Below, one piece after another: positions 6,178 to 63,484 of a stretch of 64,000 nt of DNA; the first letter of the stretch is position 1, and every line of letters begins with the position of its first letter. The position numbers and the translations under genes are program-made. The stretch is from assembly GCA_018819135.1 (NCBI GenBank), contig JAHJQK010000075.1, forward strand, positions 236 through 64,235. Direction: 5' to 3'. The notes under the pieces are model-generated. The model did no database searches and was not told the origin of the DNA. It worked only from the letters and a program-made list of their open reading frames with translations. The DNA comes from Pseudomonadota bacterium (GTDB lineage Bacteria; Desulfobacterota; SM23-61).

Positions 6178-6426
6178 CTAAGTCATATTATAAATAAAAT
6201 GGTAAGAAAATTGCAAGAGTAAATTGGGAATGGGACTATGGAACTTTGTATTTGGTATTATGTCCCCGGAATACCCGAGAATATTGACATCGTGAACTTT
6301 GCCATGAGTTATGCGGATAAAACAGGGAATGCTTCCCCGCAAATCCATGAGGGTATGGACCTTGACAGCCCCTTTGTGTTTGCGAAAATGGGCCCAGGGA
6401 AACAGGGTGAGGTATCTTTCCGTCAT
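6178..6426 (-). pseudogene. fragment of an IS4/IS5-type DDE transposase
   Basis: FPWAHFRKHKGAVKVHTLMDLRGSIPCFIRITHGKVHDVNIL is the start of a DDE_Tnp_4-like catalytic domain. Only ~60 informative residues remain; no N-terminus or rest of the DDE triad. Confidence 0.6.
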
Positions 6427-6452
6427 CGCCAGGGTCTTTGATAGGGCTTTAA

Positions 6453-9400
6453 CTACTTTGCACCTCCCACTGGGGGCGCAACTTCTATTGCTTCTTTTTT
6501 CTTGAGAAATCTGGCGAGGAAAGCGTCAACCACATCATAGGCCACCGGCACCACAATGAGCGTCAAGAAAAGGGAGGTGAGCAATCCTCCGATCACCGCG
6601 ATTCCCATGGGCGAACGGGTTTCGGCGCCTTCCCCGACACCCAGGGCTACGGGCATCATCCCGAAAATCATGGCAAAGGTGGTCATCAGAATCGGCCTCA
6701 ATCTCACGGGACCCGCTTCCAATATCGCTTCCCTCCTCGCCAACCCCCTCTGTCTCAGGGTATTGGTGTAATCCACGAGCAGGATCGCGTTCTTCTTTAC
6801 CAGGCCCATCAGGAGAATGAGCCCGATGAAGCTGAAAATATTGAGTGTCCGCCCGGTTAGAAGAAGAGCGCCGAAAGCCCCGATAAAAGCAAGAGGCAGG
6901 GACATCAAAATAATGAACGGCTGGACAAAGCTTTCAAACTGGGCAGCCAGAACCATGTAGGCCATGACGATGCCGAGAACCAAGGCAAACATTAAAAACT
7001 CGAAGGATTCCCCCATGGTATCGGCCATTCCTTTGTATCTTCCCGAGTATTCAAAAGGGAGGATCTTCGTGGCAATGGCATCCAACTCATTTTTTGCCTG
7101 GCCTAAGGGCTTGCTTTCCAGGTTGGCAAAGAGCGTGATAGCCCTCTGGCGGTCCACCCGGTTGATAATACTCGGCCCCCCCGCCTCTTGGATTTTCACG
7201 ATGTTGGCGATTTCCACCAGTCTCCCATCTCGGGAGCGCACATAAAGCCGGCCGATATCCTCGGGGCTGGTTCTACCCTCGGCCCAGAGTCTGGCTCGGA
7301 CGTCGTACCTTCGGCCCCGCGCTTCATCTTTGAATTTGGTCACATCCACTTCGCCGCCGATGAGGATGTTGATCACCTCGGCTACGCTGCCAATGTCCAC
7401 GCCCAGGTCAGCGGCCTTGTTGCGGTCGATGAGGATGCGACTTTCCGGTTTTCCGGCCTCCAGAGAAGTATCCACGTCTACAATCCCCGGAAGTTTGGAA
7501 AACTGATTCGTGACCTCACGGGAATAGGTTTCCAGCTCTTTTAGATTCCTTCCCCGGATGCTGTACTGGATGGGAACCATTCTCCGACCGCCTCCGATCA
7601 TGGCCACATCTTCCACCGAAACTTTCAGCCCGATGATCGAGGCCAGCGCCTTGCGGACCTCCTTCTTGATCTGTTCCTGTTTTTTCTTTCTCTCCGCTTT
7701 CGTTTTCAAAGTGCTGAACAGGACGGCCTTGTTGATTTCCTCGGTGGTCCCTGTTCCCAGGGCGTAATAGATGGAGACCACCTCCGGAAATTTGCGGAGA
7801 ATTTCCTCTGCTTTCCGAAACATTCCATCGGCGGCGTCAACGGAATAATCTACGGGGGCCTGCATGCGGATAATGAACCGGCCCTGGTCTTCCGGGGGGA
7901 TGAATTCCTTTCCTAAAAAATTGGTGAGCGCAAGGCCGCCCAGAAAGGCCAGCAGAGCCAATCCCAAGACCGCAGCCCGGTGCCGCAGCGCCAGGGCCAG
8001 CAATTTCTTATAGGCCCCTTCCGACTTCTTATAGAATCGATCAAACCAACCCAGGGCATCGAACCGTCTTTTCCCCTTTTCGGGGACATGGTTCCGGGAC
8101 GACCTCAGCCATTGCGATGCCAGCATGGGGGTAAGGGTAAAGGAAACAAACCAGGATACCATGACTGCAAAAACGACCGTCATGGCGAACTGGAAGAAGA
8201 ACCTTCCGATAACCCCTTTCATGAAGGCTACCGGAAGAAATATGACAATGATGGCCAGGGTGGTGGCCGACACGGCGAGGCCGATCTCGGAGGTGGCAAA
8301 GGACGCGGCTTTCTGGGGGGACATGCCCCCTTCGATGTGGCGGTGGATGTTTTCCACGACGATGATGGCGTCATCGATGAGGATCCCAATGGAAAGGGAG
8401 AGAGCCAGCATGGACATGTTGTTGAAAGTGAAATTGAAGGCCCGCATGATGCCAAAGGTGGCCACGACCGAAATCGGGATGGCCAAGGCGCTGATCAGCG
8501 TGATGCTCAGACTCTTTAAGAAGAGCAACACCGCCAGCGTGGCAAAGAACCCCCCATAAATTAAGTGATGCTGTACTTCCCGGACGGAACGGTTGATGAA
8601 GTCGGATTGGTCGAAGGCGATCTCCAATTTCATTCCCGCAGGGAGAGTGGTTTTGATCCGCTCCAGCTCCTTTTTCACCCGATTGATAACCTCGACCGTA
8701 TTGGTTCCCGACTGTTTCTGAACCCCCAACCCCACCGCGGGAACTCCGTTAAACCGGACGATGGAGCGCTTCTCCGCCATCCCGTCCTCCGCCCGCCCGA
8801 TGTCCCGGAGCCTGACCGGAGCATTGTTGTAGTATCCTACGATCAGGTCATTGAATTCCTGGGGGTTCGGAACTTCTCCTTTGATTTTTACCGAGTATTC
8901 CTTCGTGGTGCTCTCAATCCTTCCCCCGGGCAACTCCACATTCTCCCGTTGCAGAGTCCGCAAAACGTCGTGGGCGGTCAGCTTATAGGCCTCGAGTTTG
9001 TAGCGGTCCAGCCAGATGCGCACCTGCCGTAACCGCAGGCCCCCCATCCGGATGGCGCCGACTTCGTTGACCCGTTGCAGCTGTTCTTTCAATACCTCAT
9101 CCGTATAGGTGGAAAGCTCCCGAACGGACTTTTGGCCCGAAAGGGCCATCCACAATACCGGGGAAGCATCAGGGTCGACTTTTTCGATGACCGGTTCGTC
9201 GATGTCATTGGGCAATTTGGACCTGATGGCGGCGATCTTTTCTCGAACGTCCTGCACGGCCAAATCGATGTCCCTTTCGAGAACGAACTCCACGGTGATC
9301 ACGGACACGCTTTCCGCGCTCATGGAGCTGATGGTCTTGACCCCGTTTATGGTGTTGACGGCCTCCTCGATCTTATCCGTGACGTCCACATCCATGATTT

Positions 9401-9569
9401 CGGGGCTCGCTCCGCGCAGGATCGTTTTGATGTTGACGATTGGGAAGTCAACCTTGGGGAACAGGTCCACGCCGATACTGGGGTAACTCACCACGCCGAA
9501 GACGACAAGGGCCATGATCAGCATCGTGGCGAAGACCGGTCGCTTAATGGACGTATCAGCGAGCCACAT
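6453..9569 (-). CDS. RND efflux transporter permease (AcrB/HAE family)
   Basis: About 1038 aa from ATG 9569 (MWLADTSIKRPVFATMLIMA...). 12-TM RND architecture with two large periplasmic loops. The start overlaps the adaptor stop by 14 nt. Confidence 0.9.
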   Translation of the reverse strand: MWLADTSIKRPVFATMLIMALVVFGVVSYPSIGVDLFPKVDFPIVNIKTILRGASPEIMDVDVTDKIEEAVNTINGVKTISSMSAESVSVITVEFVLERDIDLAVQDVREKIAAIRSKLPNDIDEPVIEKVDPDASPVLWMALSGQKSVRELSTYTDEVLKEQLQRVNEVGAIRMGGLRLRQVRIWLDRYKLEAYKLTAHDVLRTLQRENVELPGGRIESTTKEYSVKIKGEVPNPQEFNDLIVGYYNNAPVRLRDIGRAEDGMAEKRSIVRFNGVPAVGLGVQKQSGTNTVEVINRVKKELERIKTTLPAGMKLEIAFDQSDFINRSVREVQHHLIYGGFFATLAVLLFLKSLSITLISALAIPISVVATFGIMRAFNFTFNNMSMLALSLSIGILIDDAIIVVENIHRHIEGGMSPQKAASFATSEIGLAVSATTLAIIVIFLPVAFMKGVIGRFFFQFAMTVVFAVMVSWFVSFTLTPMLASQWLRSSRNHVPEKGKRRFDALGWFDRFYKKSEGAYKKLLALALRHRAAVLGLALLAFLGGLALTNFLGKEFIPPEDQGRFIIRMQAPVDYSVDAADGMFRKAEEILRKFPEVVSIYYALGTGTTEEINKAVLFSTLKTKAERKKKQEQIKKEVRKALASIIGLKVSVEDVAMIGGGRRMVPIQYSIRGRNLKELETYSREVTNQFSKLPGIVDVDTSLEAGKPESRILIDRNKAADLGVDIGSVAEVINILIGGEVDVTKFKDEARGRRYDVRARLWAEGRTSPEDIGRLYVRSRDGRLVEIANIVKIQEAGGPSIINRVDRQRAITLFANLESKPLGQAKNELDAIATKILPFEYSGRYKGMADTMGESFEFLMFALVLGIVMAYMVLAAQFESFVQPFIILMSLPLAFIGAFGALLLTGRTLNIFSFIGLILLMGLVKKNAILLVDYTNTLRQRGLARREAILEAGPVRLRPILMTTFAMIFGMMPVALGVGEGAETRSPMGIAVIGGLLTSLFLTLIVVPVAYDVVDAFLARFLKKKEAIEVAPPVGGAK

Positions 9570-10797
9570 TGAGTTTTCCCCCCTCGGAAAGATTCTGCTG
9601 GCCGGCGACCACAACTTTTTCGCCTCCCTGTAAACCCTCCACAATTTCCATAAACTCGCCGTATTTACTGCCCACTTTCACAGCCTTTTCCTTGGCGTGG
9701 CCTTTTTCCTCCACGAACACCTTAACTTTGGTTTCCTCGTATAAAAGAGCCGTTACCGGGATCACCACCGTTTCCTTGGCCTGCCCGGTATACAGGATAA
9801 CCTTGGCAAAAAGGCCTGGCTTTAAAATTCCTTCAGGATTCGGAACCAAGGCCTCCACCAAAAGGGTCCTGGTTTTTTCCTCCAGGCTCGGATAAATGGT
9901 GGTGACTTCCCCTTTGAATTCTCTTTCGGGAAAAGCATCCACCCGCAGGGAAACACCCTGGCCGTTCTTTACTTTTCCCACGTCTCTTTCCCTCATAGTA
10001 AAACGAAGCTTGATGGGGTTTGATTGAATGATCACAAAAAGAGGGGTACCATTTTTCACCAACTCCCCTTTGGAAACCTTCCGGACCCGGACGATTCCAG
10101 CCAGGGGAGAAAAGATCTTGGTCTTGCTGAGTTTTTGGCGGGCCAGAGAGAGGGCGGCCTGGGATTGGTCTAATTGGGCGCGAGCGGCGGCGATTTCTTC
10201 CTGGCGGGGTCCCTCGACCACCAAAGCATAATTTTCTTTGGCCTTTTTATGGTAGGCAACAGCTACCTCGTATGCGGTTCGGGCAGAATCCCATTCCTGG
10301 GCGGAGATGTATTTATCCTGATAAAGCTTTTTGGCCCGATCCATATCCGCTTTCCGTTTCTCCATATCGGCCAGGGTCTGATTCACCTCCGCCTTCGCCA
10401 GTTGAATTTCTTGAGGACGGGCACCGGTTAAGAGTTGTTGTAGCCGGGAATCGGCACCCTCCAAGACGGCCTCGGCTCTTTTCGTTTCCAGACGATAATC
10501 CGTGTCATCGATCACGGCCAGTAGCATATCCCTGGAAACCTTGGTTCCTTCGTCCACTTTGAGATCCTTTAAAATCCCATCGACCTCGGTGCTTACCGTT
10601 ACCTCGTCATAGGGGTTTAAATTGCCAATGGCTTCTACGAAGGGCCGGAGAGGTCTTTTTTCCGCTGCCCGGACCTGTACGTTATAAACCTTCTCCTCGG
10701 CAACAGGTATTGAACTCACTTTTTCGCAGGCATTCAAAAGCAGAAGAACGGGAAGGGTCGATAAAAAAATAGAAGCCACGCGTAATTTTATCTTCAT
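9556..10797 (-). CDS. RND efflux periplasmic adaptor (HlyD/MFP family) lipoprotein
   Basis: Start chosen at MKIKLRVASIFLSTLPVLLLLNAC (lipobox). Has a coiled-coil hairpin and beta-barrel regions typical of AcrA-like adaptors. Confidence 0.85.
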   Translation of the reverse strand: MKIKLRVASIFLSTLPVLLLLNACEKVSSIPVAEEKVYNVQVRAAEKRPLRPFVEAIGNLNPYDEVTVSTEVDGILKDLKVDEGTKVSRDMLLAVIDDTDYRLETKRAEAVLEGADSRLQQLLTGARPQEIQLAKAEVNQTLADMEKRKADMDRAKKLYQDKYISAQEWDSARTAYEVAVAYHKKAKENYALVVEGPRQEEIAAARAQLDQSQAALSLARQKLSKTKIFSPLAGIVRVRKVSKGELVKNGTPLFVIIQSNPIKLRFTMRERDVGKVKNGQGVSLRVDAFPEREFKGEVTTIYPSLEEKTRTLLVEALVPNPEGILKPGLFAKVILYTGQAKETVVIPVTALLYEETKVKVFVEEKGHAKEKAVKVGSKYGEFMEIVEGLQGGEKVVVAGQQNLSEGGKLNVAR

Positions 10798-55861: not shown

Positions 55862-56929
55862 ATGGAAGAAAAAAAAGTACTACCGAAAAAGCTATCGATG
55901 TCCAACACGAAGCAGGAGATGATGGAGGCGTATCAAGGGGCGCTGAAATTATTGGAAGAAAAGAGAGAAACCGAACTGAAACCGGAAAAGAAACTCGAAG
56001 AGAAGAAAGCCAAAGAAGTTGTGCAGGTGGCCGATTCCCTTTCCTCGGAGGGAGTGGGGAAAGAGATCAGCGGCCTAAAGAGCGAAATCGGCAAAATGCT
56101 CACCCAGATTGCCGATAAAATGGAGGAAGAAGTCAATAAGTTCAAGGCCATTCAGAAAGCCATCGAATTGAAGGAAAAAGAGCTGCAGGAACTTTATGAT
56201 ATTGAAAAATCAGCCATGACCCTGGCGGCCTTGATCGAGACGCAGAGTCAGAAACGCCAGCAGTTTGAAGCCGATATGGCAGCCCGGAAGGAAGAATTAA
56301 GCCAGGAAATCGAGAACCTTCGTTACGAGTGGGCCAAAGAGAAAAGCGATTACGAGGCGGAGATCAAAGAGCGAGACCTAACGGAAAAGAAAAAGCGAGA
56401 GAGGGAAAAGGAGGAGTACGAGTATTCCTTCAAGCGCCAGCAGATGTTGGCCAAGGACAAGTTTGAAGATGAAAAGGCGAAGCTGGAAAAAGAAATCCAG
56501 TTGAAAAAATCTCAGATGGAAAGTGAACTGAAAGAACGGGAAAGGGTGATCGCCGAAAAAGAAGAGGAATTAAACGAGCTCAGGAAGAAAGTCAGCCTCT
56601 TCCCCAAAGATCTGGAAACCGCGGTCGGCAAGGCCGTCAAGGAAACCACCGAAAGGTTAAATCTGGAAGCCAAAAACAGGGAAGAATTGCTGAAAAAAGA
56701 ATTCATCGGCGAACGGAATGTCCTGACCACCCGCATCGAGTCCCTGGAAAAAACCGTGAAAGAACAGAGCGCCCAGATTGCCGGCCTCACCCAGTTTCTG
56801 GAAAAAGCCAACCAGAAGGTGCAGGAAATTGCGGTCAAGGCCCTGGAAAGTTCCGCAGCCGCCAAGTCCTTTGCCAGCCTGCAGCAGTTGTTGAATGAAC
56901 AGACGAAAAAAACAGGGCAGGAGAAGTGA
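55862..56929 (+). CDS. K/E-rich coiled-coil protein, function unknown
   Basis: 355 aa. Heptad-like charged sequence throughout; no motif recognised. Confidence 0.6.
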   Translation: MEEKKVLPKKLSMSNTKQEMMEAYQGALKLLEEKRETELKPEKKLEEKKAKEVVQVADSLSSEGVGKEISGLKSEIGKMLTQIADKMEEEVNKFKAIQKAIELKEKELQELYDIEKSAMTLAALIETQSQKRQQFEADMAARKEELSQEIENLRYEWAKEKSDYEAEIKERDLTEKKKREREKEEYEYSFKRQQMLAKDKFEDEKAKLEKEIQLKKSQMESELKERERVIAEKEEELNELRKKVSLFPKDLETAVGKAVKETTERLNLEAKNREELLKKEFIGERNVLTTRIESLEKTVKEQSAQIAGLTQFLEKANQKVQEIAVKALESSAAAKSFASLQQLLNEQTKKTGQEK

Positions 56930-57001
56930 AACCCTTTGAGTAAACAAGTCAAAAATGCTTGGAAATTTATTGACTTGCCGATAATGTAAATAAAAATTGC
57001 T

Positions 57002-57044
57002 CCCCGTTCGACTCGCCGCAAGGCCTCGGGCGGGGTTATTTTTT
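57002..57044 (+). terminator. rho-independent terminator candidate
   Basis: CCCCG...CGGGCGGGG GC-rich hairpin followed by TTATTTTTT. Confidence 0.5.
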
Positions 57045-57196
57045 AAGGAGGGGTAATGCCTGGTGAACCCTTCCACACAATTAGAAGTTTTGTCCTCTAA
57101 AATTCCTGGTCAGAACTTGCTTGACCTGATAGAGAATTTCTTATATATTTCGTATAGATTTTAGAACAATCAGGGGAGAAAAAGAAAGGCCTGTTC

Positions 57197-58015
57197 ATGG
57201 AACACCCAATCTCTAATTCATCTTCAACAGGTATCCTTCCCAGCTATAAGAATCCTCCTGTTAACGAAGTTGTTTGTGGAATTCGATTTCAAACTCCCGA
57301 AAAACTTCGTATCCCCCATGTGGGCCTTCTCTGGGGTAAATTTCGCAAGGATTACCCGAATATCCAACATGCATCGCCGATAGCGGCAGTTCCTGGGGAA
57401 TTGCCCGTAGACAACACAACAGGTCTGCCATTTCAAAGAATGTGGTTTATAAATAATTCAGACGATCAATTGATACAGTTTCAATTTGACCGGTTTTATT
57501 TCAATTGGCGGCGAAGGCAAAATATTTATCCACGATATCCCCATGTCATCAAGAATTTTGAAGGTGTACTGAATGCAGTTTCAAATTTTTTTAATGAATT
57601 TGAACTTGGCGAATTCAAGCCGATTGAGTGTGAACTAAGCTATATCAATCACATCCCTAAGGGTCAGGGATGGAATACAATTGATGATCTCCCCAAAGTA
57701 TTTTCGGATTTCGTTTGGAGGCAAGCAGTGGGGCGGTTCTTGCCTAATCCTATTAACATTGCCTGGCATACAGGCTTTTCTTTACCGGAAAAAAGCGGAC
57801 GTTTGATTGTTAATCTGAAACAGGCTACACGAACTATTGACAAAACCCCATTATTTGTGCTCGAGTTGAAGGCGATAGGAATAGGGGAATCAACGAACAA
57901 AGAAGGTATTCTGAGATGGTTTGACATGGCACATGAATGGATAGTACGAGGATTCACTGATCTAACAACTCCTGAGGTTCAAAGATTATTTTGGGAGCGA
58001 GAAGACAATGCCTGA
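57197..58015 (+). CDS. TIGR04255-like uncharacterised protein (gene 1 of a 3-gene operon)
   Basis: 272 aa. The N-terminus YKNPPVNEVVCGIRF and overall length fit the TIGR04255 family as I remember it. Confidence 0.6.
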   Translation: MEHPISNSSSTGILPSYKNPPVNEVVCGIRFQTPEKLRIPHVGLLWGKFRKDYPNIQHASPIAAVPGELPVDNTTGLPFQRMWFINNSDDQLIQFQFDRFYFNWRRRQNIYPRYPHVIKNFEGVLNAVSNFFNEFELGEFKPIECELSYINHIPKGQGWNTIDDLPKVFSDFVWRQAVGRFLPNPINIAWHTGFSLPEKSGRLIVNLKQATRTIDKTPLFVLELKAIGIGESTNKEGILRWFDMAHEWIVRGFTDLTTPEVQRLFWEREDNA

Positions 58016-58691
58016 AATTGATTTGCTGACTTATGATAGATGGCTTGTGGCCTCACGAAAGGCCAGCACAGCATATGGCAATCGATTTCTTTCCGAGGAC
58101 CCCACAGGAGAGGAACCATATTCCGGAGCATGGAATTTGGAAAGGGGTCAATATCAGCAAAAAAGGCCCTATTCGCTGACCCCAGCCATCGGCCAAGGGA
58201 CCATCGATGATTTAATAAGTGGTTATTTCAAGGTCAAAGATCCATTTACGCAAGCCGATTTGGTTGAGACCGAAGAAGAGCAACTGCAAGAGATAATTTT
58301 TAAGCTTAGGACGTCGCCCTATATTTCTTGTCGGGAAGTGGCCGATAGACTTCTTACATTATTTAATGATGCAAAAGAAGACGATCCTATGAGCATAGGG
58401 ATTGTTCTCGGCTCTCTTCGCAATTTTTATAATTTTTTCCAATTATATACCGACCTAAAATGCCCAAGTATTTCTTTAACGCCTGATAATAATATCTATA
58501 TCTCATGGAGGGCAAAGAAGAATCGAGTGTTTAGTGTGCATTTTCTGCCAAGTGCAGATGTTCGCTTTGTTATTTTTAAGCCTAATGATAGGCATCCAGA
58601 AAAACAAATTCGCCTTTCCGGTACTGCAACGGCTGATATTCTCAAGGAAACGGTACTTCCTTATGGAGTGTGGAGCTGGATCTCAGAATGA
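58008..58691 (+). CDS. hypothetical protein (gene 2 of the operon)
   Basis: 227 aa. Start overlaps the gene 1 stop by 8 nt (ATGCCTGA). No recognised motif. Confidence 0.6.
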   Translation: MPEIDLLTYDRWLVASRKASTAYGNRFLSEDPTGEEPYSGAWNLERGQYQQKRPYSLTPAIGQGTIDDLISGYFKVKDPFTQADLVETEEEQLQEIIFKLRTSPYISCREVADRLLTLFNDAKEDDPMSIGIVLGSLRNFYNFFQLYTDLKCPSISLTPDNNIYISWRAKKNRVFSVHFLPSADVRFVIFKPNDRHPEKQIRLSGTATADILKETVLPYGVWSWISE

Positions 58692-59077
58692 AAGGTGATA
58701 AAATACCTGACCAGCATCACATTGCCCGATATTGCAAACCTACGCATGCCCCAGATGGCCAAATTCAAGCAACCGCTTTCATGTTGAGATTGGGAGAAGA
58801 AAACTTATCAATAAATTGCCTTGAATTGCTTAACTGTTCAGGCAGAGAAAATGAAGTTGCTCAGCTGCAAACGATTTATGCGACGAAACTAAGTGTCGGA
58901 GCTCGTGCAAAAATTGCCGTCCTAAATGTAGGTGAGGTTCGCAACCACGTTTTAGATGAAAGCCCTGATAGGCGAAATCTTAAAGTTCTCCATGACCCGC
59001 AATCTGAAGATCCATCCCACAGCGGAATATATAATTTAAGAGAAGATGATGAATTGATAGCTGAACTGATTCTTTAA
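58688..59077 (+). CDS. hypothetical protein (gene 3 of the operon)
   Basis: 129 aa from an ATG that overlaps the gene 2 stop (ATGA). An alternative GTG lies at 58670. Begins MKGDKIPDQHHIARYCKP... No recognised motif. Confidence 0.55.
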   Translation: MKGDKIPDQHHIARYCKPTHAPDGQIQATAFMLRLGEENLSINCLELLNCSGRENEVAQLQTIYATKLSVGARAKIAVLNVGEVRNHVLDESPDRRNLKVLHDPQSEDPSHSGIYNLREDDELIAELIL

Positions 59078-59126
59078 ACAGTGCGGGAGACTTACAACGC
59101 CCGTTTTTAGTCTTTTAATCCACTCG

Positions 59127-59155
59127 TTGACTCCTTGCCTCCAATTTGTTAGATT
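59127..59155 (+). promoter_or_regulatory. promoter candidate upstream of hsdR (TTGACT-17 nt-TAGATT)
   Basis: Read directly. About 100 nt before the ATG at 59258. Confidence 0.3.
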
Positions 59156-59257
59156 ACCCTCAAGATTGAAATTGTATTTTTTTACAATCCCTATCCGGCA
59201 ATCATTGGTAAAACCTTCAGCCCCCAAGATATAGTTTCCTAATGGCGGAAACACCGA

Positions 59258-60430
59258 ATGAAACCTGAGGAAAAAGCCAGGAAAGAGATTGACAGACAGC
59301 TAAAAATGGCAGGCTGGGAGGTTCAGGATTATAATGAACTCAATCTCGGTGCTTCCCCGGGTGTTGCCGTCCGGGAATTCCCCCTCCAATCCGGCTATGC
59401 CGATTATCTTCTCTTTGAGGATCGAGATCCTGTCGGTGTCCTGGAAGCCAAGCCCCAAGGAACCACCCTGAGCGGGATAGCCGAGCAGAGCGAAAAATAT
59501 TTAGCCAGCATTCCTGAAAGCCTTCCTAAAGTTTCCACTCCTCCCCGGTTTGCCTACGAGTCCACAGGCGTAGAAACTTACTTCCGTGATCTGGCTGATC
59601 CGGATTTCCGGAGCCGGAGAGTATTTTCCTTTCACCAGCCCCAAACATTGAGCGCCTGGCTTGCGGAGGGGGATACTCTGCGAGGGAGGCTCAAAAAGAT
59701 GCCTCCCCTCATCAAAATGGGGCTCAGGGATTGCCAGATTGAGGCCATTGAGAACCTCGAAGAGTCTTTCCACGCTTCCAAGTCCAGGGCGCTCATCCAA
59801 ATGGCCTCTGGAGGGGGCAAGACCTTTACCGCCGTGAGTTTTATCTATCGGCTGATCAAATTTGCCAACGCCAGAAGGGTTCTTCTCCTGGTTGACCGGA
59901 ACAACCTGGGCCGCCAGACCAGAAACGAATTCCAGCAATATGAAACCCCCGACGACCGCCGAAAATTCACAGAGCTCTACAACATCCAGCACCTCACCTC
60001 CAACACCCTCGATCCGGTGAGCCGTGTCTGCATCACCACGATCCAGAGGCTTTTTTCAATGCTCAGGGGCGAGGAGGAATATGACCCTGAGTTGGAGGAA
60101 AAATCCCTCTTTGAAATCCCTTCCGGCGAAGCCCCCAAAGAGGTAGTTTACAACCCAAAGATTCCCATCGAAACTTTTGATTTTATCGTTACGGATGAAT
60201 GCCACAGGTCGATCTATCATCTCTGGCGGCAGGTTCTGGAATATTTCGACGCCTTCATAATCGGGCTGACCGCTACCCCCTCCAAGCAGACCCTTGGTTT
60301 CTTCGATCAAAACCTTGTCATGGAATACAGCCATGAGAGGGCCGTAGCCGATGGGGTCAACGTGGGGTATGACGTTTACCGCATCCAGACCAAGATCACG
60401 GAGCAGGGCAGCAAGGTTGATTCAGGATTT
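59258..60430 (+). pseudogene. hsdR: type I restriction enzyme R subunit, 3'-truncated (about the first 390 aa only)
   Basis: N-terminal nuclease-type region, then helicase motifs MASGGGKT (I), VTDECHRS (II) and GLTATP (III). Helicase lobe 2 and the C-terminal domain are missing, and the ORF tail after ~60430 is out-of-frame hsdS sequence. Confidence 0.75.
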
Positions 60431-60656
60431 TACATTAGCCCAGGAAGTCGAAAAAATTGCCGAACAAACCCTCAAACAATCAGAAAGACTGCGCCAGAGT
60501 ATTTTAAAAACCGCTTTTGAAGGGAAATTGGTTCCGCAAGACCCAACCGATGAGCCAGCTGAAAAGTTATTGGAGCGTATCAAGACGGAGAAAGCCAAGA
60601 AAGAATCGGAAACAAAAGGCAAACGGAAAAAATCAAACCAGATGGAGCTTAAATAG
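60431..60656 (+). pseudogene. hsdS: 3'-terminal fragment of a type I specificity subunit gene
   Basis: The frame-3 reading ...LAQEVEKIAEQTLKQSERLRQSILKTAFEGKLVPQDPTDEPAEKLLERIKTEKAKK is the conserved C-terminal helix and tail of HsdS. No target-recognition domains are present. Confidence 0.65.
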
Positions 60657-62120
60657 ATGGCAAATGAATCCGCTGGTATAGTCCAAAGACTCTGGAATTA
60701 TTGCAACGTCCTCCGGGATGACGGCGTGAGCTATGGGGACTACGTGGAGCAGTTGACGTTCCTATTGTTTCTTAAAATGGCGGATGAGCAGACTAAGCCT
60801 CCTTTCAATAAGCGTTCCGCTATACCCCAGGAGCTTGATTGGCAGAGCCTTTTGAAGAAAGACGGCGATGCCCTGGAAGTTCATTATCGCCATATTCTCG
60901 ATAGCCTTGGAAAAGCCGGAGGGATGCTCGGAATCATTTTCCGAAAAGCCCAAAATAAAATCCAAGACCCAGCCAAATTGAAGCGCCTCATCGAACTTAT
61001 AAATGAAGAAACATGGGTCGGGCTGGATATTGATGTGAAAGGGGAGATTTACGAGGGTCTCCTGCAAAAGAACGCCGAGGACGTAAAGGGCGGCGCAGGG
61101 CAATATTTTACTCCCCGGCCTTTGATCAAGGCGATGGTGGAAGTAACCAGGCCGGAACCAGGGCAAACCATCTGCGATCCTGCCTGTGGAACGGGCGGCT
61201 TCCTCCTGGCATCTCATGATTACCTCTCCAACCCTAAGAACTATTCCCTCGATAAAGATCAAAAAACATTCCTCAAATTCAAAACCTTTAAAGGCAAGGA
61301 TATAGTCGATGGGGTAGCCAGGCTCTGCGTAATGAACCTATTCCTTCACGGCATCGGAGGGGAGGAAAGCCCGATTGAAGTGGGAGATTCACTCATTTCC
61401 GATCCGGGCCATCGATTTGATATTGTTCTTACCAATCCGCCATTCGGGAAAAAGAGCAGTATCACCATCGTAAACGGCGAGGGAAAAGCCGATAGGGAAA
61501 CCCTGGTTTATGAGAGGCAGGATTTTTGGGCCACAACCTCGAACAAGCAACTGAATTTCCTCCAGCACGTCAAAACCATCCTTAAAATCAACGGCAAATG
61601 CGCAATCGTGGTTCCGGACAACGTCCTGTTTGAGGGTGGAGCGGGAGAAACAGTCAGGAAGAAGCTCTTGGCTGAATGCGACGTTCACACCCTCTTGAGG
61701 CTTCCTACGGGTGTTTTTTATGCCCAGGGCGTAAAGGCCAACGTCCTTTTTTTTGCCCGAAAAGAAGCCAGGGAAAAACCTTGGACAGAAAGACTGTGGA
61801 TATATGATCTAAGAACCAATAAGCACTTCACCCTCAAAACAAACCCGCTCCGATACGATGACCTACAGGATTTCATCAAATGCTACAACCCCAAGAACCG
61901 TTTCGATCGAAAGGAAAACGACCGCTTTAAGTCATTTTCGTATGACGAACTGATGCAGAGGGACAAGGTGAGCCTGGATATATTCTGGCTTAAAGACGAA
62001 AGCCTCGAAGACTCCGAAAACCTCCCAGCCCCAGACCTGATCGCCGCCGACATCGTTGAAAACTTAGAATCCGCCCTGGAACAATTCAGCGGTATTTATG
62101 AGAATTTGACAAATAAATGA
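60657..62120 (+). CDS. hsdM: type I restriction-modification N6-adenine DNA methyltransferase subunit
   Basis: 487 aa. HsdM N-terminal domain (LWNYCNVLRDDGVSYGDYVEQLTFLLFLKM), DPACGTGGFL and NPPFG. Confidence 0.9.
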   Translation: MANESAGIVQRLWNYCNVLRDDGVSYGDYVEQLTFLLFLKMADEQTKPPFNKRSAIPQELDWQSLLKKDGDALEVHYRHILDSLGKAGGMLGIIFRKAQNKIQDPAKLKRLIELINEETWVGLDIDVKGEIYEGLLQKNAEDVKGGAGQYFTPRPLIKAMVEVTRPEPGQTICDPACGTGGFLLASHDYLSNPKNYSLDKDQKTFLKFKTFKGKDIVDGVARLCVMNLFLHGIGGEESPIEVGDSLISDPGHRFDIVLTNPPFGKKSSITIVNGEGKADRETLVYERQDFWATTSNKQLNFLQHVKTILKINGKCAIVVPDNVLFEGGAGETVRKKLLAECDVHTLLRLPTGVFYAQGVKANVLFFARKEAREKPWTERLWIYDLRTNKHFTLKTNPLRYDDLQDFIKCYNPKNRFDRKENDRFKSFSYDELMQRDKVSLDIFWLKDESLEDSENLPAPDLIAADIVENLESALEQFSGIYENLTNK

Positions 62121-62466
62121 GATTGCCGAGAAGGCAAGATGTTTCAACTGGCATAATCCCGTCGTTGAGAAGAAGACATGTTGGAAGAAAGGTTGGGGTC
62201 ACATCTTCAGATGTCATTTAAAGTTCGATTTTGTTCTAACGTTATTTGATCCAAGTTATCCACACTTCGGGCCGCCGATATCTTTGGGTGTATCGGCTTA
62301 AATCTCTTTGGTCTCTACCTCTCTTTAAAAAAATTAAATCGGGACCATGCTTGGCAGTTGAGTATGACCTCGCCCACGATGAACTTGGCTACATCCTCGG
62401 ATCAAGGAGGCGAAACGAATTTATGGATTGCTCTTTGTTCCCAATAAAGGTACAATTGTACCCATA

Positions 62467-63087
62467 ATGAGTTCGATGGATTTATCAGCCGCATTGTTCG
62501 GAAAGACGCGTAGAGCGGTTTTGGCTCTCTTTTATACCAATCCGGACGAATCTTTCTACTTACGCCAAGCCATCCGGGCTATCGGCCTCGGCCAGGGGAC
62601 TGTGCAAAGGGAACTTACCCGCCTTACAGAGGCAGGCTTGTTGGTTCGCTTCGTCAAGGGCCATCAGGTTTATTATCAGGCGAACCGTCAGTCGCCGATC
62701 TTTTCCGAAATGAAGTCGTTGATCGTCAAAACCGCCGGTGTGGGCGATATCTTGAGAGTGGCGTTGAACGATTTTCTGGATCGGATTCTCTTGGCCTTCA
62801 TCTATGGTTCCTTGGCCGCTGAAACTCATAAGGCAACAAGCGACGTGGATTTAATGGTCGTGGGGGATCTGTCCTTTGCCGAGATTGCCGCAGCTTTGCA
62901 TCCGGCTCAAGAAAAACTCAGCCGGGAAGTGAACCCGACCGTTTATTCGATAGCGGAGTTTCGAAAAAAACTGCAAACCGGGCATCATTTTATAAACACG
63001 GTTATCCGAGAACCAAAGATCTTTCTGATCGGAGACGAGGGTGAGCTTAAGAAGCTGGGCGCAAAACGGCTGGCTGATAGAGCATAA
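62467..63087 (+). CDS. winged-HTH + nucleotidyltransferase-domain protein (MNT-type antitoxin candidate)
   Basis: LFGKTRRAVLALFY...GTVQRELTRLTEAGLL is the wHTH. YGSLAAETHKATSDVDLMVVG is the GS...DxD motif. Confidence 0.7.
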   Translation: MSSMDLSAALFGKTRRAVLALFYTNPDESFYLRQAIRAIGLGQGTVQRELTRLTEAGLLVRFVKGHQVYYQANRQSPIFSEMKSLIVKTAGVGDILRVALNDFLDRILLAFIYGSLAAETHKATSDVDLMVVGDLSFAEIAAALHPAQEKLSREVNPTVYSIAEFRKKLQTGHHFINTVIREPKIFLIGDEGELKKLGAKRLADRA

Positions 63088-63484
63088 AACAAGCGCCGGA
63101 GAAATTGCCGACCTTTTGCGCGTCGCCGAGCGGGACCTGGAAGACTGCCGGACTCCCGGCCTGAGCGCCGATTGGCAGTTGGGCATCGCCTACAATGCGG
63201 CCCTCCAGGCGGCCACGGCCGCATTGGCTGCCAGCGGCTACCGGGCATCGCGCGAAAGGCAGCACTACCGCGTCATCCAGAGCCTACCATTTACGATCGG
63301 CGTTCATGCCGATTTCGTCATGCAGCTCGATCAATTCCGCAAAAAACGCAATATCAGTGATTATGAAAGGGCTGGGGCCATATCGGATCTGGAGGCAAAA
63401 GAAATGATTGGTTTGGCGCATAAGCTAAACCAGAAGGTAAGGGATTGGCTGAAATTGAACCATCCGCAGCTTCTGAAGGACTAA
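63041..63484 (+). CDS. HEPN-domain protein (toxin candidate; GTG start, 47-nt overlap with the upstream gene)
   Basis: 147 aa, all-helical, with ...LDQFRKKRNISDYE... as a HEPN-type core. Paired with the NTase gene. Confidence 0.6.
   Translation: MSLRSWAQNGWLIEHKTSAGEIADLLRVAERDLEDCRTPGLSADWQLGIAYNAALQAATAALAASGYRASRERQHYRVIQSLPFTIGVHADFVMQLDQFRKKRNISDYERAGAISDLEAKEMIGLAHKLNQKVRDWLKLNHPQLLKD

Follow-up and report, generated by a model that had tools for sequence, protein, structure and literature searches.

The described systems closest to the locus reported here are the tripartite toxin–antitoxin (TA) systems, namely TAC (toxin-antitoxin-chaperone), CmdTAC, HipBST, MqsRAC, and PaaR-PaaA-ParE, and the candidate defence systems recognized by their association with defence islands, including the PDC-S and PDC-M entries of PADLOC and the systems of Gao 2020, Millman 2022, and Vassallo 2022. 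In most type II TA pairs, a variable gene stands ahead of a conserved one, and classical type II antitoxins usually carry a DNA-binding domain of the helix-turn-helix (HTH) or ribbon-helix-helix (RHH) type. Here we describe a cassette of three overlapping genes (hereafter designated genes 1–3 and, together, the trio) at positions 57197–59077 of a 64,000-nucleotide (nt) stretch of contig JAHJQK010000075.1 (assembly GCA_018819135.1), the whole of which is called the window. The trio is a real, selected, translationally coupled, and self-promoted three-gene unit that is strictly co-inherited. An earlier note on this DNA had read it as a candidate novel system, and it is supported as a candidate by its co-occurrence in other genomes, its non-metabolic context, and the lack of a match to known defence systems.

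The genes and their promoter are located as follows.
57121–57149, + strand: sigma-70-type promoter, TTGACC-17-TATATT, scoring 10/12 and the best in the region by promoter scan
57197–58015, + strand: gene 1, TIGR04255-family protein of 272 amino acids (aa)
58008–58691, + strand: gene 2, protein of 227 aa from an undescribed family
58688–59077, + strand: gene 3, protein of 129 aa from the ATG, or 135 aa from an upstream GTG

At the junction of genes 1 and 2 the sequence reads ATGCCTGA, an 8-nt overlap, and at that of genes 2 and 3 it reads ATGA, a 4-nt overlap. The positions and both overlaps of the three coupled open reading frames (ORFs) given in the earlier note were thus reproduced by the ORF listing and the sequence reading, whereas gene 3, listed there at about 129 aa, proved not to be an intact gene. 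The promoter ends 48 nt ahead of the ATG of gene 1, with a conserved leader between them.

A pattern scan for gene 3 over 185,579 species-representative genomes yielded 36 loci, all in metagenome-assembled genomes (MAGs), which span Planctomycetota (Brocadia), Desulfobacterota, Nitrospirota, Ignavibacteria, Cloacimonadota, KSB1, Acidobacteriota, Calditrichota, Spirochaetota, and Marinimicrobia. The earlier note had supposed that the genes of a genuine system would co-occur elsewhere and outside metabolic operons. Indeed, the trio was found with the same gene order and with overlaps in 34/34 loci having upstream sequence, from at least 10 phyla, and genes were missing only in loci cut by contig ends and in a 5'-deleted remnant (L025). 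The 8-nt overlap of genes 1 and 2 was present in 23/34 loci and the ATGA overlap of genes 2 and 3 in 27/34. Nor is the trio embedded in a metabolic operon; it forms an autonomous cassette, the flanks of which vary by genome and are rich in restriction–modification (R-M), TA, and defence genes. Moreover, the pairwise identities of the three proteins were correlated (r = 0.7–0.8), as expected for co-inheritance.

The extent of the cassette was defined by the upstream DNA of 12 loci from different phyla, which are unrelated up to the −35 box and similar from exactly that box (TTGACG...17 nt...TATAT) to the ATG. Since the similarity begins at the promoter, the transferred unit consists of the promoter and the three genes and includes no mobility gene. 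Copies from Planctomycetota, Desulfobacterota, Nitrospirota, Spirochaetota, and others share about 70% identity. As judged from sequence comparison, the cassette is horizontally mobile, with this cross-phylum identity and the trough of guanine-plus-cytosine (GC) content in the window, given below, counting as support. No flanking direct or inverted repeats pointing to a transposon or an integron were found.

The assignment of gene 1 to the TIGR04255 family, made by eye in the earlier note, was borne out by the NCBIfam model, which gave 84.5 bits (E = 9.9e-24) against a curated cut-off of 30 bits in a nearly full-length alignment (residues 17–265 with positions 2–251 of the 252 in the model). 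NCBIfam labels the family 'sporadically distributed protein, TIGR04255 family', a name that carries no function, and no mention of TIGR04255 or its InterPro aliases was found in a search of the full texts of 8.3 million papers; the position of its members at the head of a conserved three-gene cassette appears to be a new finding. Searches with single sequences and profiles gave no match for gene 1 in Pfam, PADLOC, PHROGs, or PDB sequences. Its mean pairwise identity across phyla is 0.67, and among 59 diverse members conservation reaches at least 90% at residues including E24, Q94, Q96, D98, R99, N103-W104-R105, Y111-P-R-Y114, E146, and N151. An internal duplication was looked for in TIGR04255, and none was found.

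Genes 2 and 3 had been described as matching nothing recognizable, and neither matched Pfam, NCBIfam, PADLOC, PHROGs, or PDB sequences by the same two kinds of search; they are, however, not orphans, both belonging to large undescribed families. Homologues of gene 2 form 453 clusters at 90% identity and those of gene 3 form 511, every one labelled hypothetical; their sources are lineages of anaerobic sediment, wastewater, and groundwater. Gene 2 is the least conserved of the trio (mean pairwise identity, 0.50), with a variable N-terminal half and a conserved C-terminal domain (...P.IS.TPD.nIy.sW...). For gene 3, with a mean pairwise identity of 0.65 across phyla, a profile search of 1.84 billion representatives (E <= 1e-3) gave 1412 clusters at 50% identity, the best 150 of which are all stand-alone, single-domain proteins of about 140–150 aa. 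Where divergent gene 3 representatives lie on contigs of about 1 kb, an adjacent upstream gene is present.

Among 127 diverse gene 3 members, S41 is invariant, and P7, R14, A30, F31, W44, E46, H102, P104, and H111 are conserved in at least 90%; of these, R14, A30-F31, S41, P104, and H111 also have counterparts in the motifs of the third genes of mycobacterial type described below. An AlphaFold 2 (AF2) model built on an alignment of 127 representatives (33–65% identity to the first sequence) reached a predicted local distance difference test score (pLDDT) of 97.3 and a predicted template modelling (TM) score of 0.90, a 13-sequence alignment having given a pLDDT of 40. The model is a six-strand α/β domain, in which R14 lies on β1, S41 on β2, Glu46 directly after β2, H102 at the end of β4, and H111 on β5. 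Compared with the PDB by Foldseek, it gave no fold match at E <= 1e-3. The highest TM-scores were with CC0527 (DUF952; 2O0P/2O0Q; TM 0.41/0.49, probability 0.2), and DarT stood lower in the list (TM 0.25); for these matches of the ADP-ribosyltransferase (ART) type, the Foldseek probabilities were 0.2 and 0.05, with E of about 1. Comparison with BFVD gave one significant match, the unnamed viral protein A0A9E7QQI2 (E = 2.9e-4).

CC0527, of DUF952, has been described as a 'divergent ART' with a suggested role in antibiotic modification (PMC8120803), DUF952 and DarT are both listed in the ART clan (PMC7955679), and DarT and RES proteins are TA toxins (PMC8120803). The published ART signatures are H-Y-E, R-S-E, H-H-h, and R-Y-N (PMC8120803). 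The gene 3 set R14/S41/E46/H102/H111 fits none of these, its conserved β5 residue being His111, and none of the 127 members matched Pfam models of the ART clan (RES, DarT, DUF952, PTS_2-RNA, ART, PARP, and others) at E <= 10. We take the ART likeness of gene 3 as a faint hint provided by the model, that is, a lead and not a classification. Other candidate motifs, examined by eye, were rejected for want of support: a HEPN Rx4-6H motif (R96-x5-H102) was dropped because the model is α/β rather than all-helical; JAMM, HD, 2H-phosphoesterase, GIY-YIG, HNH, and PD-(D/E)xK were dropped for wrong spacing or the lack of a conserved acidic cluster; and a Cys-His-Asp peptidase was dropped because Cys16 is not conserved in the wide family.

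The layout extends well beyond these close homologues. A tblastn search of plasmids with gene 1 returned one record, a TIGR04255 gene of 23% identity on the Mycobacterium paragordonae plasmid NZ_CP025547.1 (L046), with mobF immediately ahead of it and two overlapping genes, encoding 180 and 142 aa, behind it. Relatives of this gene, together with a metagenome scan using a narrower alignment, gave 29 more loci with 28–59% identity to it, and in 23/25 distant loci with room for the trio, a TIGR04255 gene (about 260 aa) is followed by an overlapping ORF of about 175–200 aa and then one of about 140–155 aa, each position forming a coherent family with conserved motifs. The first genes of these distant cassettes scored 62.8–108.6 bits against TIGR04255. 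With identities of 23–30%, distant TIGR04255 genes occur in the same layout on mycobacterial and cyanobacterial plasmids, a viral contig, and integrated elements. Searches of hidden Markov models (HMMs) against sequences detected no link between the mycobacterial-type second and third genes and genes 2 and 3. Profile–profile alignment with hhalign was full-length and collinear both for gene 2 with the distant second genes (P = 7.5e-4; controls, 0.2–0.6) and for gene 3 with the distant third genes (P = 3e-4, 9e-5 in global mode), six reversed or non-cognate controls giving P = 0.05–0.63, and these links modestly suggest that the distant second and third genes are related to genes 2 and 3. The clades are bridged by an IMG/VR contig (L050, IMGVR_UViG_3300033553_000517, 6389–10077), which carries a TIGR04255 gene (E = 4.5e-31), a gene 2-like gene of 227 aa (18 bits), and a third gene of 157 aa that is a solid member of the gene 3 family (73.8 bits).

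We propose to define the cassette as a TIGR04255 gene, then an overlapping gene on the same strand encoding about 175–235 aa with a C-terminal 'P..(S)..PDG...W' domain, and then an overlapping gene encoding about 140–155 aa with the motif series R / AF / (L,I)S(V) / VR / (D)P / (A,S)H. The window contains a cassette of this kind, and the same layout was seen in 34/34 close loci, in 23/25 distant metagenomic loci, and in L046, L047, L050, L084, and L088. The window cassette is, by these comparisons, apparently one clade of a much wider undescribed three-gene family anchored by TIGR04255.

Further trios or partial trios were found on the Crinalium PCC 9333 plasmid pCRI9333.03, on Thermus brockianus pTB1 (adjoining VapBC and Cas6), in a Ralstonia 'phage' record, beside an integrase, and at the edge of an element with Prim-Pol, resolvase, and terminase genes. 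In this last case (L084 1–8798; JGI Ga0496067_000009), a mycobacterial-type overlapping trio of 267, 177, and 154 aa is the last cargo of a small integrated element that encodes a Prim-Pol/DUF3987 primase, a resolvase, and a terminase-like protein, borders on ychF, lytB, and xseA, and has a layout like that of a phage satellite. In the Ralstonia 'phage' YO139_2 record (L088 2317–4384; ON170239.1, marked UNVERIFIED_ORG), PAAR-like proteins and proteins of the type VI secretion system (T6SS) type lie downstream of the trio, as judged by eye; some of this record may thus be host DNA, and the trio in it may not belong to a phage. On Rhodococcus aetherivorans pRaL13e (L087 1–4944), the second position is taken by an XRE-like HTH protein, which hints at module exchange, and an ISL3 element stands in the place of the third gene. 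Both there and in L046 (139–7749), the TIGR04255 gene shares a strand with the MobF relaxase gene and starts within 100 nt of its end. The trio of the IMG/VR contig lies tail-to-tail with a 468-aa KAP-type P-loop ATPase with a partial match (E = 4.6e-14) to QatA of the Qat defence system, the match falling far short of the equivalog cut-off.

On long contigs, trio sites adjoin a PemK TA system, an MmeI-type R-M system, DUF5131, and an insertion sequence; HEPN/nucleotidyltransferase (NTase) genes, UPF0175/DUF3368, a T1RH-like fragment, ORF6N, and a Toprim/DUF3987 primase; a type IIG R-M system, VapBC, and DUF2283, in three assemblies that share the downstream flank and differ upstream; or MqsA-like and PDDEXK genes. 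In a census of the neighbourhoods (206 ORFs, up to 4 kb from 33 loci), the commonest Pfam families were N6_Mtase (7), ResIII (5), Eco57I (4), and N6_N4_Mtase, ORF6N, Polbeta, and SLFN_AlbA_2 (3 each), followed by NTP_transf_2, Type_ISP_C, DUF1016, SNF2, EVE, and Fic-like (2 each), and one SMODS+SLATT_4 pair. PADLOC models identified type I, II, III, and IIG enzymes, DrmD, BrxH, PDC-S02, PDC-S05, and mad2 among these ORFs, and housekeeping genes occurred only at the outer edges of the neighbourhoods. A conserved linkage of the trio to hsdR/hsdM/hsdS was not found, the flanks varying by locus and N6_Mtase accounting for 7/206 neighbouring ORFs. In L042, L043, and L044 (gene 2 protein P0167), the trio and the downstream flank of DUF2283, DUF445, and PdxA are identical, and upstream one has an intact 1288-aa MmeI-type enzyme, one has this enzyme fragmented, and one has unrelated small genes and an N6_N4 methylase. 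This site looks like a recombination hotspot, and two of the assemblies seem frameshift-rich.

In the window itself, gene 3 is truncated, as found by reading its sequence against the tails of its homologues.
59075–59077, + strand: premature TAA of gene 3, within the region 59075–59110 that retains the ancestral C-terminus

The window gene reads ...ELIL-TAA and then, in frame, TVRETYNARF-TAG, with the second stop at 59108–59110, whereas the homologous tails end in ...ELILETVRETYSAR(x), for example, ETVRETYNARA. The nonsense change is thus GAA to TAA at a conserved Glu codon. Full-length homologues are 139–147 aa in 32/32 cases, and the window protein is the shortest of the 33. A read error is unlikely because the identical 129-aa protein occurs on three contigs, and the mutation is recent, to judge from the downstream codons, which are still intact. 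The lost residues 130–140 include the last strand of the model (β-strand, 132–137), so that the window copy of the cassette is probably impaired, being either attenuated or dead. If gene 3 is a toxin or other effector, nonsense truncation is the expected kind of decay. A decayed cassette was also observed at L025 1–976, where gene 1 and the first approximately 100 codons of gene 2 are gone and gene 3 ends at about residue 124.

As to function, we give about an even chance to the trio, an autonomous mobile operon, acting as a tripartite conflict module of the TA or abortive-infection type; both this function and the role of each protein are what we infer from the sequences. The translational coupling suggests that the products assemble in fixed proportions, and the cassettes travel as cargo of defence or TA islands, plasmids, and prophage- or satellite-like elements. 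Gene 3 would encode the effector, a compact α/β protein with the enzyme-like, near-invariant residues Arg14, Ser41, Glu46, His102, and His111, which may use a nucleotide or nicotinamide adenine dinucleotide (NAD) or cleave a phosphodiester. The gene 2 protein, with its fast-evolving N-terminal half and conserved C-terminal domain, may be a neutralizer that holds the effector in check or an adaptor to the gene 1 protein; the latter is a putative sensor or regulatory subunit, for which the role of a scaffold or a second catalytic subunit is also proposed. The order of a variable gene 2 followed by a conserved gene 3 is like that of type II TA pairs. It is possible, though doubtful, that TIGR04255 trios constitute a widespread unrecognized immune or conflict class in at least a dozen phyla, in which the gene 3 fold and its Arg-Ser-Glu-His-His site would be new and would represent a new mechanism of growth arrest or phage restriction.

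Several observations weigh against a conflict function. Sequence searches placed no protein of the trio in a known family of toxins, antitoxins, nucleases, ARTs, or defence proteins, Foldseek returned no significant PDB match for the gene 3 model, and Pfam detects no HTH, RHH, AbrB, or Phd/YefM domain in gene 1 or gene 2. The choice of gene 3 as effector is a guess from conservation, the invariant polar set of gene 1 being equally enzyme-like. The census frequencies are judged to be far above genome averages by general knowledge rather than by a computed background, and the neighbourhood association also fits addiction, anti-defence, or detoxification.

Rather unlikely, in our estimation, is a function restricted to the addiction of plasmids and mobile elements, in which a three-component TA system would act by post-segregational killing and have no anti-phage role. 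Such a function would accord with the presence of the trio on plasmids of M. paragordonae, Crinalium, Thermus, and Rhodococcus and at the edges of integrated elements, with immediate neighbours that are very often other TA pairs, with the TA-like gene order, and with the nonsense mutation in the putative toxin gene, a kind of decay that is common among chromosomal TA copies; most copies found are, however, chromosomal and lie among R-M and other defence genes, and neither a DNA-binding domain of the antitoxin kind nor a known toxin fold was recognized in the trio. Because phage defence is also a property of many TA systems, this explanation overlaps with the conflict module. The mobile elements would benefit in another way if the trio helped an incoming plasmid or phage to beat host immunity, or supported its transfer, which we regard as very unlikely. 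The TIGR04255 gene does lie directly downstream of mobF in the same orientation in two actinobacterial plasmids, but these may simply be related; the trio occurs on a viral contig and at the end of an element bearing terminase and primase genes, and the viral BFVD protein A0A9E7QQI2 shares the gene 3 fold (E = 2.9e-4), yet among 2.9 million viral contigs a single one was hit by the patterns for gene 3, and the window gene 1 matched no cultured phage. The clade of the window is, moreover, overwhelmingly chromosomal, with no transfer genes nearby.

A non-toxic accessory pathway, in which gene 3, as a divergent ART-like or other small transferase or hydrolase, and gene 1 would modify or detoxify a small molecule (an antibiotic or a toxin) or a nucleic acid with gene 2 as an accessory subunit, appears distinctly unlikely. 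The best PDB TM-scores of the gene 3 model (0.41/0.49) are with CC0527, the DUF952 'divergent ART' suggested to modify antibiotics (PMC8120803), DarT is also listed, and genes 1 and 3 both have enzyme-like invariant polar residues. Against these stand the Foldseek probabilities of 0.2 and 0.05 at E of about 1, the count of 0/127 members matching ART-clan Pfam models at E <= 10, a third catalytic position unlike that of H-Y-E, R-S-E, or H-H-h, and neighbours that are R-M, TA, and mobile-genetic-element genes instead of conserved resistance, transport, or biosynthetic genes. That the ORFs form no functional unit and are chance ORFs or decaying pseudogenes in an AT-rich spacer is scarcely credible and is refuted for the family. 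The premature stop in the window gene 3 and the remnant state of the flanking type I R-M system would agree with decay, but hundreds of homologues are under purifying selection, with 65–67% mean identity for genes 1 and 3 across phyla, the lengths, overlaps, and promoter are conserved, and the gene 3 model has an AF2 pLDDT of 97.

The surroundings of the trio in the window were characterized by the following features.
56991–57045, + strand: intrinsic terminator of the upstream Lys/Glu-rich gene, from RNA folding and a terminator scan
57050–59250, unstranded: AT-rich block containing the cassette, from the GC profile

The hairpin that the earlier note had placed ahead of the operon (57002–57044) is a real and credible terminator, with a folding free energy of −24.8 kcal/mol (z = −2.85) and a following U-run, UUAUUUUUU, and it is the left boundary of the inserted block. 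The gene that ends at this strong terminator, between hisD and the cassette (55862–56929), encodes a 355-aa Lys/Glu-rich, coiled-coil-like protein of no Pfam family, and its strand shows a marked AT skew (0.4–0.48). The GC content is 0.40–0.44 over about 57000–59250, and 0.40–0.45 over the block as delimited above, compared with 0.53–0.57 toward hisD and about 0.53 across the truncated hsdR, in agreement with the AT-richness relative to the hisD side that had been noticed by eye. The promoter-like sequence said to precede hsdR does exist (59127–59155, 9/12), but such sites are not above chance in the region (7 observed versus 5.1 ± 2.7 expected).

Downstream of the trio lie an N-terminal fragment of HsdR (ResIII + HSDR_N, 420 aa) and then an intact HsdM (487 aa). 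The type I R-M system at 59258–62120 is a remnant, in which a 101-aa ORF (60351–60656) with no Pfam match overlaps the end of hsdR, and the Pfam scan of ORFs between 59258 and 63484 revealed no hsdS. Further on (62428–63484), a 219-aa protein with a MarR-like winged HTH and a nucleotidyltransferase domain is followed by a 147-aa partner overlapping by 47 nt; the pair resembles an MNT/HEPN-type TA system, the partner having no Pfam match. Of the immune neighbours named in the earlier note, the type I R-M remnant, HsdM, and the NTase pair are thus present, whereas the HEPN identity of the 147-aa partner was not confirmed in Pfam.

If the trio is a conflict system, it would add a new multi-gene family to the prokaryotic immune repertoire and provide the first functional context for TIGR04255 and for two large families without a library model. 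Gene 3 makes an attractive biochemical target, being about 140 aa long, with a confident predicted structure, no solved relative, and clear candidate catalytic residues; intact copies are available in Brocadia and Planctomycetia MAGs, the latter on JABTVC010000002.1, and on the plasmids of Crinalium PCC 9333 and M. paragordonae, and the window gene 3 is predicted to be a natural loss-of-function allele. A one-locus observation is thereby turned into a testable family-level hypothesis.

Compared with tripartite TA systems, the trio is alike in having three small coupled genes, in being mobile and located in defence or TA islands and on plasmids, and in placing a fast-evolving middle component before a small, conserved, enzyme-like protein. 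It differs in that its components gave no match to SecB-like chaperones, HipA-like kinases, RelE/ParE, known ART toxins, or antitoxins of the HTH or RHH type, and its largest and most conserved protein (TIGR04255) has no counterpart there. Indeed, none of the three proteins matches SecB or another chaperone family in Pfam or NCBIfam, and no recognized type II toxin superfamily, such as RelE/ParE, MazF/PemK, PIN, HEPN, Fic/Doc, GNAT, RES/ART, HipA, or Zeta, was matched by gene 2 or gene 3 in these libraries or, at E <= 10, by the 127 gene 3 relatives. Gene 3 resembles divergent ART-fold proteins (DUF952/CC0527, DarT of DarTG, and the RES toxins ParT and MbcT) in its length of about 140 aa, its mixed α/β fold with about six core strands, the basic residue on β1, and the Ser on β2, and differs from them in that the fold match is not significant, no ART-clan profile matches, and the residue set fits no signature. 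Unlike the candidates from defence islands, the trio is matched by no PADLOC-DB v2 model; in the PADLOC check proposed in the earlier note, 0 of the 5027 models of PADLOC-DB v2.0.0 matched any of the three proteins at E <= 1. Its components are unfamiliar, two belonging to families without a model in any library tested and the third to one that is named but unstudied. As a compact cassette of a defence island, however, it is of a familiar kind: like those candidates, it is a compact operon of unknown families that is sporadic, horizontally transferred, and located near R-M, TA, CBASS-like, DISARM/BREX-like, and PDC genes.

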